From Chrysomallon squamiferum (Eukaryota > Animalia > Mollusca): a DNA stretch of 64,000 bases. Both the position numbers and the translations under genes were made by a program. Of this stretch, positions 44,186 to 59,209 are shown piece by piece (position 1 is the stretch's first letter; each line of letters begins with the position of its first letter). The stretch covers positions 7,564,001 through 7,628,000 of the forward strand of contig CM022667.1 of NCBI GenBank assembly GCA_012295275.1, read 5' to 3'. The notes under the pieces were generated by a model. That model was not told where the DNA came from, did no database searches, and saw only the letters and a program-made list of their open reading frames with translations.

Positions 44186-46746
44186 ATGGTAAGAAATATT
44201 TTAATATTTTATAACGTGTAAGTGTAAGTGTTCTTATCTTGGTGTAATTAATTTAGTTTTTGAATCTTTATTAAGTTGTGAATAAGTTTAATCTTAGAAT
44301 AACAAGAAATAATATTGCTGATATATAGTTATGATAATTGGTTTTTAATTCATAATAGATAGCTAGGTAGCAAGATAGACAGGCTGATGAATAGACAGAT
44401 AGATAGGTGAATAGATAAATATATAGATAGACGTGTTTTGTGATATATTGTTATTATTATTATTACTATTATTATTATTATTATTATTATTATTATTATT
44501 ATTATTATTATTATATTTTCAGAAACTGTCAATTTTTCTTTGTTTCTTTCTCCTGGCTGCCTGCAGCGCTCTCAGCAAGTAAGTAAAAATTTACAATTTA
44601 GTTTAATTAACGTGTCTGTGTGTGTGTGTGTGTGTGTGTGTCTGTCAGTCTGTATGTGTGTATGTATGTCTGTTACTGTGTATTTGTATTTATGTAACTG
44701 TGTACATTATTGTTTCTTTGAATGTTGGTATATGTATAATGATGGATGGTGATGATGATGTTGATGATGATAATGATAAAAATAATAATAATAATAAGGA
44801 TGATGAAGATGTTGATGATGATGATGATAATAATTATGATGATGAAGATGTTGATGATGATGATTATGATGATGATGGTGATGATAAAAATGTATTTCAG
44901 GGAATCATTGAATGCTATGCTGAAATTCTTCACTCCTGAAACTGTAGAAAAGTTGAAGATGTCGACAGACAAAATGAGCGACACGTGGTTCTCGCCGTTC
45001 TACAGGCCACAGCAGACGACGTGTGAGCCGTGTCCGTACAGCGTCAGTAACTTCCCGACGTTTTGCAACAACAACTGTCGCGTCATCATACCCAGCGTCC
45101 GATCTGTGACTTGTCTGTGAGTAGTATCTTTGTTATATAAATAACATTTTATAACACACAGTATCATGTAAATAACATTTTATAACACATAGTATCATGC
45201 AAATGATATATAACACAGTATGACATAACTAATATTTTATAACACATAATGTTATTTGCATGTATGTATGTATGTATATATGATCATATATAAAACAAAG
45301 CCGGATAAATGTTCTTGTATAAACAATTAGGTAATTATTAATAATTGTTTTATGCAAACAAAAATTAAATATAAAACATTAAAGAGGTTGATTTGTATTT
45401 AAAAATGTGGCTGACAACAGAGCATGCTAATTCAGATACCAGTGATTTTATTCTGTTGCAGTAACTGATACATAGTGATGATATTAAGATATAGTAACTG
45501 ATACATAGTGATGATATTAAGATATAGTAACTGATACATAGTGATGATATTAAGATATAGTAACTGATACATAGTGATGATATTAAGATATAGTAACTGA
45601 TACATAGTGATGATATTAAGATATAGTAACTGATACATAGTGATGATATTAAGATATAGTAACTGATACATAGTGATGATATTAAGATATAGTAACTGAT
45701 ACATAGTGATGATATTAAGATATAGTAACTGATACATAGTGATGATATTAAGATATAGTAACTGATACATAGTGATGATATTAAGATATAGTAACTGATA
45801 CATAGTGATGATATTAAGATATAGTAACTGATACATAGTGATGATATTAAGATATAGTAACTGATACATAGTGATGATATTAAGATATAGTAACTGATAC
45901 ATAGTGATGATATTAAGATATACTAACTGATACATAGTGATGATATTAAGATATAGTAACTGATACATAGTGATGATATTAAGATATACTAACTGATACA
46001 TAGTGATGATATTAAGATATAGTAACTGATACATAGTGATGATATTAAGATATAGTAACTGATACATAGTGATGATATTAAGATATAGTAACTGATACAT
46101 AGTGATGATATTAAGATATAGTAACTGATACATAGTGATGATATTAAGATATAGTAACTGATACATAGTGATGATATTAAGATATAGTAACTGATACATA
46201 GTGATGATATTAAGATATAGTAACTGATACATAGTGATGATATTAAGATATAGTAACTGATACATAGTGATGATATTAAGATATAGTAACTGATACATAG
46301 TGATGATATTAAGATATAGTAACTGATACATAGTGATGATATTGAGATATAGTAACTGATACAAAGTGATGATATTAAGATATAGTAACTGATACATAGT
46401 GATGATATTGAGAGATAGTAACTGATACAAAGTGATGATATTAAGATATAGTAACTGATACAAAGTGATGATATTAAGATATAGTAACTGATACATAGTG
46501 ATGACATTAAGAGATAATAACTTGTACAGTGATGATTTTAAGATGTAGTAACTGGTATCATTTTAAATTTACAGATACAAGAGCTGTTATCAGTTCTGTC
46601 CCTGTAAACACTCAAATCCTACCTGCCATCCTGCTGGTTACGCAACATTCTGGGTTGTTGCTAAGTGCTCACAGCCCTGTGGACGTTGGCCTGCAGGTTG
46701 GAGTTACAACTACCAACGCTTCCCACAGGATTGCAAGTGTTACTAA
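44186..46746 (+). CDS. Secreted 13-Cys cystine-knot-like precursor, copy B (148 aa)
   Basis: Exons 44186-44188 (ATG|gtaag), 44523-44578, 44901-45116, 46575-46746: MKLSIFLCFFLLAACSALSKESLNAMLKFFTPETVEKLKMSTDKMSDTWFSPFYRPQQTTCEPCPYSVSNFPTFCNNNCRVIIPSVRSVTCLYKSCYQFCPCKHSNPTCHPAGYATFWVVAKCSQPCGRWPAGWSYNYQRFPQDCKCY. AATAAA at 46804. Confidence 0.9.
45460..46560. repeat. 33-bp minisatellite, ~33 copies, in intron 3 of gene B
   Basis: Unit AGTAACTGATACATAGTGATGATATTAAGATAT, highly homogeneous, ending ~15 nt before the exon 4 acceptor. Confidence 0.97.
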
Positions 46747-56695: not shown

Positions 56696-59209
56696 ATGGT
56701 AAGAAATATTTTAATATTTTATAACGTGTAAGTTTAAGTGTTCTTATCTTGGTGTAATTAATTTAGTTTTTGAATCTTTATTAAGCTGTGAAAAAGTTTA
56801 ATCTTAGAATAACAAGAAATAATATTGCTGATATATAGTTAGTTAATAATATGTAAATGATAATTTGCTTTTAATTCATAATAGGTAGCTAGATAGCTAG
56901 ACAGATCGACAGATAAATACACGTGTTTTGTGATATATTATTATTGTTATTATTATTATTATTAGTATTATTATTATTAGTATTATTATTATTATTATTA
57001 TTATTATTATTATTATTATTATTATTATTATTATTATTATTATTATTATTATTATTATTATTATTATTATATTTTCAGAAACTGTCAATTTTTCTTTGTT
57101 TCTTTCTCCTGGCTGCCTGCAGCGCTCTCAGCAAGTAAGTAAAAATTTACAATTTAGTTTAATTAACGTGTGTGTGTGTGTGTGTGTGTGTGTGTGTGTG
57201 TGTCTGTCAGTCTGTATGTGTGTATGTATGTCTGTTACTGTGTATTTGTATTTATGTAACTGTGTACATTATTGTTTCTTTGAATGTTGATATATGTATA
57301 ATGATGGATGGTGATGATGATGTTGATGATGATAATGATAAAAATAATAATAATAATAAGGATGATGAAGATGTTGATGATGATGATGATAATAATTATG
57401 ATGATGGATGGTGATGATAAAAATGTATTTCAGGGAATCACTGAATGCTATGCTGAAATTCTTCACTCCTGAAACTGTAGAAAAGTTGAAGACGTCGACT
57501 GCCAAAATCAGCGTCAAGTCGTTCTTGGCCTAGCAAACTAGGGGAGTCGGCATGTGAGTTGTGTCCGTACAGAACCAAGACCGCCGTGACGTTTTGCAAC
57601 AACATCTGTTACGTCATCACTACCCAACTTCATCCGAACTGTGTCTTGTCTGTGAGTAGCATCTTTGTTATATAAATAACATTTTATAACACATAGTATC
57701 ATGCAAATTAGATTTTATAATACTATATACACAATATATTTTATAACACACAGTATCACATAAGTAATATTTTATAACACATAATGTCATGTGTGTGTGT
57801 TTGTGTGTGTGTGTGTATATATATATATATATATATATATATATATTATATATATCAGCTACTCAGTTATTTTATTTTGTATCAAGTTTTACATAAGACA
57901 TAATTTACTCTCTTTATACTGACTGACACAAACTGATATTAAGAGACAGTAACTGATACAAAGTGGTGATATTAAGAGATAGTAACTGATACAAAGTGAT
58001 GATATTAAGAGATAGTAACTGATACAAAGTGATGATATTAAGAGATAGTATCTGATACAAAGTATGATGTTAAGAGATAGTAACTGATACAAAGTGTTGA
58101 TATTAAGATATAGTAACTGATACAAAGTGATGATATTAAGAGATAGTAACTGATACAAAGTGATGATATTAAGAGATATAACTGATACAAAGTGATGATA
58201 TTAAGATATAGTAACTGATACAAAGTGATGATATTAAGAGATAGTAACTGATACAAAGTGGTGATATTAAGAGATAGTAACTGATACAACTGATACATAG
58301 TGATGATATTAAGATATAGTAACTGATACAAAGTGATGATATTAAGATGTAGTAACTGATACAAAGTGATGATATTAAGATATAGTAACTGATACAAAGT
58401 GATGATATTAAGATATAGTAACTGATACAAAGTGATGATATTAAGATATAGTAACTGATACAAAGTGATGATATTAAGAGATAGTAACTGATACAAAGTG
58501 ATGATATTAAGAGATAGTAACTGATACAAAGTGATGATATTAAGATATAGTAACTGATACAAAGTGATGATATTAAGATATAGTAACTGATACAAAGTGA
58601 TGATATTAAGATATAGTAACTGATACAAAGTGATGATATTAAGATATAGTAACTGATACAAAGTGGTGATATTAAGAGATAGTAACTGATACAAAGTGAT
58701 GATATTAAGAGATAGTAACTGATACAAAGTGATGATGTTAAGAGATAGTAACTGATACAAAGTGATGATGTTAAGAGATAGTAACTGATACAAAGTGATG
58801 ATATTAAGAGATAGTAACTGATACAAAGTGATGATATTAAGAGATAGTAACTGATACAAAGTGGTGATATTAAGAGATAGTAACTGATACAAAGTGGTGA
58901 TATTAAGAGATAGTAATTGATACAAAGTGGTGATATTAAGAGATAGTAACTGATACAAAGTGGTGATATTAAGAGATAGTAACTGATATATAATTTTAAA
59001 TGTACAGATACAGGAGGTGTCATCCGCTGGGCCACTGTGAAAACTGTCATGCTTACTGCCGTCCTACTGGTGACGCAGTATTCTGGTTTTTTGGTTTCTG
59101 TCCACATCCCTGTGGACATTGGCCTGCAGGTTTCAGTTACAACTACGAATACTTCCCACAGGATTGCAAGTGTTACCACCATAAAAAAGTATTCCTGAAA
59201 ACAATTTAA
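56696..59209 (+). pseudogene. Secreted 13-Cys cystine-knot-like precursor, copy C; two +1 insertions in exon 3 (recent pseudogene or assembly error)
   Basis: Exons 56696-56698, 57079-57134, 57434-57651 (218 nt vs 216 in B; extra G at ~57528 gives TAG at 57531-57533; extra C at 57620), 59008-59209. Corrected mature region: SACELCPYRTKTAVTFCNNICYVIIPNFIRTVSCLYRRCHPLGHCENCHAYCRPTGDAVFWFFGFCPHPCGHWPAGFSYNYEYFPQDCKCYHHKKVFLKTI. Confidence 0.8.
57935..58990. repeat. 33-bp minisatellite, ~32 copies, in intron 3 of gene C
   Basis: Unit AGTAACTGATACAAAGTG(A/G)TGATATTAAGA(G/T)AT, ending just before the exon 4 acceptor. Confidence 0.97.

Follow-up and report, generated by a model that had tools for sequence, protein, structure and literature searches.

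Probable diversifying selection and 5′ gene conversion in tandem genes for predicted cystine-knot proteins of the vent snail Chrysomallon squamiferum

We analysed a 64,000-nucleotide stretch of the Chrysomallon squamiferum genome (contig CM022667.1, positions 7,564,001 to 7,628,000 of the forward strand), referred to below as the window, which has 29% G+C, is rich in microsatellites and carries two closely related genes, B and C, for putatively secreted cysteine-rich proteins, together with an older paralog, A. All three lie on the plus strand, and positions are those of the window. The coding sequence of gene B, an open frame of 148 amino acids, is divided among four exons whose splice sites are canonical. 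Exon 1 (44186-44188) is the ATG alone, followed directly by a GT donor; exon 2 (44523-44578) encodes a hydrophobic segment that, judged by eye, resembles a signal peptide; exon 3 (44901-45116) encodes the pro-region and the first five cysteines, Cys1 lying at 45022; and exon 4 (46575-46746) supplies eight cysteines and ends in CKCY and a stop codon. A TATA-like box, identified by consensus match only, is found at 44092-44098, with its C counterpart at 56602. In the resulting protein, a hydrophobic leader and a pro-region of about 40 residues precede a domain of about 87 residues, which contains 13 cysteines and ends in PQDCKCY. Gene C (56696-59209) has the same layout, with an ATG exon at 56696-56698, an exon 2 at 57079-57134 identical in sequence to that of B, an exon 3 assembled at 57434-57651 and an exon 4 at 59008-59209, whose eight cysteines include one that has moved relative to B. 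The original prediction took CKCY as the terminus of both genes, which is true of B, whereas C continues for 10 more residues. Intron 3 contains a 33-bp minisatellite in both B (45441-46557) and C (57915-58992), and the commonest unit is not the same in the two.

Alignment of B with C revealed a 5′ tract of about 1.07 kb (43892-44958 in B, 56416-57491 in C) that differs by about 1% and then gives way abruptly to divergent sequence. Mismatches number 4 in 279 unmasked aligned bases of the promoter and 5′ untranslated region (UTR), 3 in 142 in the first part of intron 1, 0 in 56 in exon 2 and 1 in 233 in intron 2, and the first 19 codons of exon 3 show a single synonymous change, in agreement with the original prediction. 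Intron 1 as a whole is less alike than had been proposed (23/239), owing to a degenerate GATA patch. When the non-coding segments and exon 2 were pooled without that patch, the tract had 8 mismatches in 710 bases, compared with 85 in 557 for the start of intron 3, the 3′ UTR and the 3′ flanks. The expected match of the 3′ UTR was not found (6/50 mismatches), and that of intron 3 held for only about 48 nt (2/48), the initial 146 nt carrying 27 mismatches. The 3′ UTR and 3′ flanks (18/89 and 34/272) are thus 12-20% divergent, and a far-upstream stretch reaches 23% (47/206). The 3′ edge of the tract lies at exon 3 codon 20 (44959 in B, 57492 in C), exactly where an abrupt change had been predicted. 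This is 21 codons ahead of Cys1 and within the pro-region, so that the differences are not confined to the mature domain as had been supposed, even though the mature codons do diverge; the 11 pro-region codons beyond the edge have 6 replacements and 1 silent change, which is not significant.

A tract with 1% difference inside flanks that differ by 12-23% suggests that the duplication is older than the tract, and the 5′ identity is best read, from these alignments, as a recent conversion tract that arose after the duplication. Introns 1 and 2 would then lie inside converted sequence and form a false neutral baseline. Their identity overstates the acceleration of the coding sequence, and they could not serve as the neutral reference for which they had been proposed.

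Selection on the mature domain was assessed over 83 codons comparable between B and C (22 counted from Cys1, the last 5 of exon 3 and 56 in exon 4), leaving out codons around two frame breaks in the assembled C. Of these, 38 carry amino-acid changes and 1 a silent change only. Exon 4 as a whole contributes 27 amino-acid-changing codons and 1 synonymous one; the count of 14 against 1 put forward for its part from the fourth shared cysteine (exon-4 codon 17) to CKCY was reproduced. The 22 exon 3 codons from Cys1 comprise 13 identical, 9 changed and 0 silent ones. Pathway counting over the 83 codons gave a nonsynonymous divergence (dN) of 0.31-0.34 and a synonymous divergence (dS) of 0.07-0.085, and a pairwise codon model fitted by maximum likelihood gave an omega (dN/dS) of 4.6-4.7 (likelihood-ratio test, p 0.001-0.002). 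The original prediction held that a ratio of 1 or less with high dS would imply conversion alone; the ratio found is about 4.6, at low dS. In simulations (1500 per setting), silent-only codons were as few as this in 0-0.5% of runs at omega = 1 and in 6-42% at omega 3-5. The proportion of nonsynonymous differences (pN) exceeded the 3′ non-coding divergence (P = 0.0003), and none of 12 fourfold sites differ. Paralog A provided an internal control: A and B have a dN of 0.32 at a dS of 1.0, and B and C a dN of 0.34 at a dS of 0.08. The exon 4 changes fall on both branches, 6 on B and 11 on C, with 10 assigned to neither. A six-row tree gave no resolution.

The cysteines themselves have not stayed in place. 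Within exon 4 they are spaced 3-1-6 in B but 5-2-3 in C, where one cysteine has disappeared and a new one stands five codons further on, which contradicts the fixed disulfide scaffold of the original prediction. Identical codons are used for 10 of 11 shared cysteines in the young B/C pair, and for 6 of 12 in A/B and 6 of 11 in A/C.

Several results pull against this picture of selection. Exon 4 alone has an omega of 2.5-2.7 that is not significant (p 0.07-0.10), pN is not above the divergence of the far-upstream flank (P = 0.17), and all p-values concern a pair and a region chosen for looking divergent. Moreover, among sequencing contigs resembling C, 14 of 16 single-base differences are replacements, not significantly more than neutrality predicts (P 0.15-0.25); the 16 exclude differences at the two breaks, one in an indel patch, one B-like and those in introns. 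Considering the omega of about 4.6, the pN above 3′ flank divergence, the low dS and the 1% tract within 12-23% flanks, the sequence comparison supports diversifying selection on the mature domain together with 5′ gene conversion, the combination that the original prediction had thought possible.

C exon 3 as assembled measures 218 nt, compared with 216 in B, and its frame is broken near 57525 and 57620, with a stop read. Contigs from 8 of 16 listed public sequencing runs were aligned to it. At the first break all 10 itemised C-like contigs, which come from 7 of the 8 runs, differ in length from the window such that the frame stays open; at the second the same holds for 5 contigs from 5 runs, the X7 and X10 contigs ending there. 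These tallies do not count the X1 contig, whose 15 gap positions were partly itemised. Alternative alleles occur in the runs at each break, and the window exceeds either of them by one base, which suggests a consensus error over a heterozygous site. The two frame breaks are therefore probably consensus errors over polymorphic sites, and we rejected C as a pseudogene because the itemised C-like contigs keep its frame open at both positions. Four or more C-like haplotypes that carry in-frame indels can be told apart in the same contigs; these may be alleles or close paralogs. The polymorphism around C extends to length variants at the junction of pro-region and mature domain. Two X10 contigs open with the final 23 bases of exon 2 and pass into exon 3 at the predicted junction, indicating splicing in one run; that this run is RNA is a guess backed by the spliced junction, and it is filed under a different organism code. 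In the part corresponding to 57444-57486, read contigs of several runs also showed two extra pro-region types absent from the window, with 9-12 differences that are mostly replacements (7 of 8 codons scored). These contigs continue into unlike sequence, so the family extends past the window.

Homologs of the family were sought first by an exhaustive search with B exon 4, which returned 3 hits, of which one was credible, LOC121389487 of Gigantopelta aegis (XP_041377072.1, here P0099). A profile search (2 hits among 52 candidates), which depends on shared exact words and may overlook distant relatives, added G. aegis LOC121389493 (P0100), and a word-indexed search with exon 4 alone retrieved no longer homolog. 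A Branchiostoma RDH11 model (P0098) and a 3046-residue protein (P0097) were dropped as short partial matches. Both G. aegis proteins are uncharacterised and share with A, B and C the order of signal, pro-region and C-terminal cysteine domain (in A, B and C a hydrophobic exon 2 after the ATG exon, judged by inspection), a CEPCP start and a PQDCxC end; P0099 is 44-50% identical to exon 4 of A, B and C. They differ from the three in their longer pro-regions with extra cysteines and in lacking two cysteines common to A, B and C. The number of cysteines is odd in all five full sequences, with 13 each in A, B and C and 11 and 13 in the mature parts of P0099 and P0100. A furin-type RRKR site precedes the mature domain in P0100, and none was found in A, B or P0099. 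PDB sequence searches gave chance rows only, and a metagenome scan gave 5 loci with matches of 13-21 residues, which we took as chance. A literature search, incomplete and not extending to supplements, found no description of LOC121389487 or of mollusc Spaetzle or cystine-knot expansions matching this family.

Growth-factor cystine knots are defined by six knot cysteines and a terminal CxC, and the five proteins show both. We searched with P0099 in Atlas, a feature search based on a protein language model. The best match was an unnamed echinoderm-rich cluster (0.93), and at 0.90-0.91 there followed clusters labelled Spaetzle (22% of members), IL17 (13%), Noggin (53%) and NGF (17%). The ten best family-bearing hits all share a family or clan, as those of one third of shuffled proteins do, and five of the seven best structure rows are labelled with cystine-knot families; a query with exon 4 gave no usable match. 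The mature-domain model of P0099 has a long hairpin (56-70/80-94) ending at the CxC, whereas a single-sequence model, with a predicted local distance difference test (pLDDT) score of 37, was too poor for searching. Nearly all listed Foldseek rows are cystine-knot growth factors, and a VIA-align comparison with 48,161 chains yielded 6 with a Z of at least 2, of which three are cystine-knot proteins. The fold assignment has its own weak points. The mature-domain model reaches a pLDDT of 56, the template modelling scores of the structure rows are 0.45 or lower, the best Foldseek E value is 0.63 with none below 0.6, the best VIA-align hit has Z 2.5 and a root-mean-square deviation of 5.5 over 70 residues, and all fold matches were obtained with the G. 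aegis homolog and not with B or C. Furthermore, Pfam returned 0 families for P0099 (E 10), P0100 (E 0.01) and six exon pieces (E 10), the models for Spaetzle (PF16077), IL-17 (PF06083) and Noggin included. Taken together, the models make a cystine-knot fold of the mature domain likely, without assignment to a named family. "Toxin-like", the term of the original prediction, thus applies to the evolutionary pattern only, while the protein itself resembles a secreted protein of cystine-knot cytokine type.

From these observations we propose that B and C are tandem paralogs encoding secreted, predicted cystine-knot proteins of Spaetzle/IL-17/Noggin-like type, homogenised at the 5′ end by conversion and diversified at the binding surface by microbe-facing immune interactions, a proposal whose chances we consider about evenly balanced. 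The signal peptide and pro-region would route the protein to secretion, and the secreted pre-pro-protein would release or present the knot domain. Its odd cysteine count would suggest a disulfide-linked dimer; Spaetzle and PTTH are disulfide-linked dimers. Conversion would spread over the promoter, signal and early pro-region and be purged where it would erase the specificity of a copy. The C-terminal strand and core cysteines would stay fixed, with turnover in the loop after CPY, the segment past the exon 3/4 junction and the first finger strand. Through these variable loops and finger strands the domain would contact a partner that itself varies, either a microbe-targeted host receptor or a microbial surface. 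With its copy turnover, many haplotypes and an omega greater than 4, the family comes closest to mollusc defence families, and by this analogy an immune or microbe-facing role appears most likely, standing roughly level with its rivals taken together.

The same genes and the same selection could also belong to ligands that act in gamete recognition or as pheromones and that sexual conflict has diversified. Gamete-recognition proteins are present in related gastropods, abalone lysin and sp18 being diversified examples, and secretion with an omega well above 1 would fit them equally. However, a cluster in which several copies decay and many haplotypes bearing in-frame indels coexist is closer to immune families, and Pfam searches gave no sequence link to known gamete proteins. 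We regard this explanation as unlikely. In a more speculative form of the microbe-facing reading, which we find rather unlikely, a growth-factor cystine knot would have turned into a hypervariable family for recognition or control of symbionts in chemosymbiotic vent snails, an animal counterpart, on a cytokine scaffold, of the legume NCR peptides. Promoter and secretion signals would be held uniform by conversion, and the surface of the knot would be diversified by selection.

A developmental or endocrine role is doubtful to a similar or slightly greater degree. Here Trunk/PTTH/Noggin-like ligands or antagonists would have adapted to different host receptors after duplication in a single burst. 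The Noggin-labelled clusters among the Atlas neighbours and the RRKR site of P0100 are consistent with this, and partner switching in the Noggin/Trunk/PTTH family is described (PMC9071555). Against it, the high polymorphism around C and repeated pseudogenisation would be unusual for dosage-sensitive developmental ligands. Alternatively, co-option of the cytokine fold might have produced an abundant effector or structural protein of clotting, mucus or a cuticle coat that meets microbes directly, for which horseshoe-crab coagulogen is a precedent. The mature domains are mildly cationic (exon 4 net charge +3 to +5) and aromatic-rich, and their extra cysteines differ among copies; the charge is nevertheless modest, and we consider this role improbable.

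We disfavour, as quite improbable, an explanation without positive selection, in which the contrast would be due solely to 5′ conversion or to a dead C whose constraint has been relaxed. The tract does account for the 5′ identity, C is broken as assembled, and the X1 indels were not fully itemised. But the dS of 0.07-0.08 is below flank divergence, fourfold sites are unchanged, neutral simulations fail and contigs keep the frame of C open. A chimeric assembly of the shared 5′ part, which the original prediction had considered, is very improbable: consensus errors do seem to be present in C exon 3, yet each 5′ tract has its own indels and repeat lengths, and one X3 contig runs from 38 C-identical bases into B-like sequence, which counts against a chimera at the tract end only. 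A venom or defensive toxin family is hardly credible, since, despite the toxin-typical pattern of conserved signal and variable mature region, the recruitment of cystine-knot growth factors into venoms and a snake VEGF-F among the weak Foldseek rows, the nearest relatives come from a vent peltospirid that is not known to possess a venom system, Pfam searches matched no toxin family, there is no inhibitor-knot CC array, and the Cys codons are not hyperconserved relative to A.

Among known systems, ligands of Spaetzle/NGF-type and Noggin-like/Trunk/PTTH proteins share with this family the signal, the pro-region and the C-terminal cysteine domain ending in CxC (Atlas 0.91), and differ in that B and C match no Pfam family and have 13 cysteines. 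Our literature search found no report of an omega far above 1 in a mollusc Spaetzle/Noggin-type family. Molluscan IL-17-like cytokines are also near (an Atlas cluster at 0.91 in which Mollusca is the commonest phylum), but unlike them the present proteins lack the Pfam match and have more cysteines. IL-17 genes have undergone tandem expansion in cephalopods and bivalves, with purifying selection as the usual mode. Mytilus CRP-I and myticin C resemble the present genes in being clustered, with a conserved pro-region and a variable mature part. CRP-I has a conserved signal and propeptide, a positively selected mature region and about 50 members, genes and pseudogenes together (PMC10138031), and myticin C has undergone recombination or conversion and positive selection (PMC3164099). 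A, B and C contain no CC pair, and their spacing is unlike the C-C-CC-C-C knottin array of CRP-I (PMC10138031). The mussel proteins are short, of knottin or defensin type and unrelated in sequence, whereas the domain here has about 87 residues and is growth-factor-knot-like. Conotoxin superfamilies likewise combine a conserved signal with a hypervariable mature exon, and their cysteine codons are hyperconserved across divergent paralogs; the snail genes differ in having no venom context, a larger domain, shifting cysteine positions and cysteine codons that are not conserved relative to A.

The pattern of conserved 5′ end and variable mature region is thus real here and of a known kind; what is new is that it occurs, in a vent-snail lineage, on a scaffold that is uncharacterised and likely of cystine-knot cytokine type. 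Cystine-knot cytokines are usually conserved, and in this lineage-restricted, uncharacterised family copies turn over, 5′ ends are probably converted and omega exceeds 4. Vent-snail genome papers discuss expanded families including DMBT1 and Txn1, and the parts of them available to us do not mention this one (PMC7736800, PMC7142155). Its members are concrete candidates for host-microbe recognition in vent snails, whose symbiont-selecting or -controlling molecules are poorly known. The locus also exemplifies two traps: converted introns may pass for a neutral baseline, and highly polymorphic genes may resemble pseudogenes in a consensus assembly and drop out of annotation.

Searches of the 64-kb window by tblastn with single exons yielded a cluster of three apparently intact copies (A, B and C) and three broken remnants on the minus strand. 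Paralog A (36867-38321) has open frames in exons at 36867-36922, 37162-37386 and 38141-38321, boundaries read by eye, with intron phases as in B and C; its start exon is uncertain, a candidate lying at 36656. Remnant D (53332-53821) retains an exon 3 piece (53711-53821) and an exon 4 piece with stops, remnant E (50467-50963) has a stop in its exon 3 piece and a frameshift in exon 4, and in remnant F (42463-42537) only the beginning of exon 4 is left. The 3′ flank of B/C, the 33-bp minisatellite and the upstream flank are also present as orphan copies, part of them inverted, at 39747-40247, 40918-41280, 52457-52639 and 54504-54886, showing repeated local duplication and inversion within the cluster. 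A degraded minus-strand reading frame at 48340-48900, without Pfam match, resembles the end of a MULE-type transposase, and its flank at 47967-48365 recurs at 41.5, 52.7-53.1 and 62.1-62.2 kb.

Outside the cluster, a single-exon rhodopsin-type G-protein-coupled receptor is encoded at 198-1406 (plus strand), its best named match being from G. aegis (79%), followed by Haliotis (61%), which fits a host that is likely a neomphaline, peltospirid-like snail. The G. aegis contig with this match equals in length the one that carries both family homologs, a hint of shared linkage. A multi-exon helicase with a zinc knuckle, matching Helicase_C and zf-CCHC, occupies 13.7-27 kb on the minus strand and is taken by us to be RECQL4, and IMPDH/GMP-reductase exons lie at 31.7-33.0 kb (plus strand), immediately upstream of the cluster. 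An 85-bp perfect duplicate at 27953-28037 and 41113-41197, 13 kb apart, one copy of which splits a minisatellite remnant, is possibly a short recent mobile element. Tandem arrays are present at 63283-63994 and 15778-16134, with periods of about 65 and 82-84 bases.

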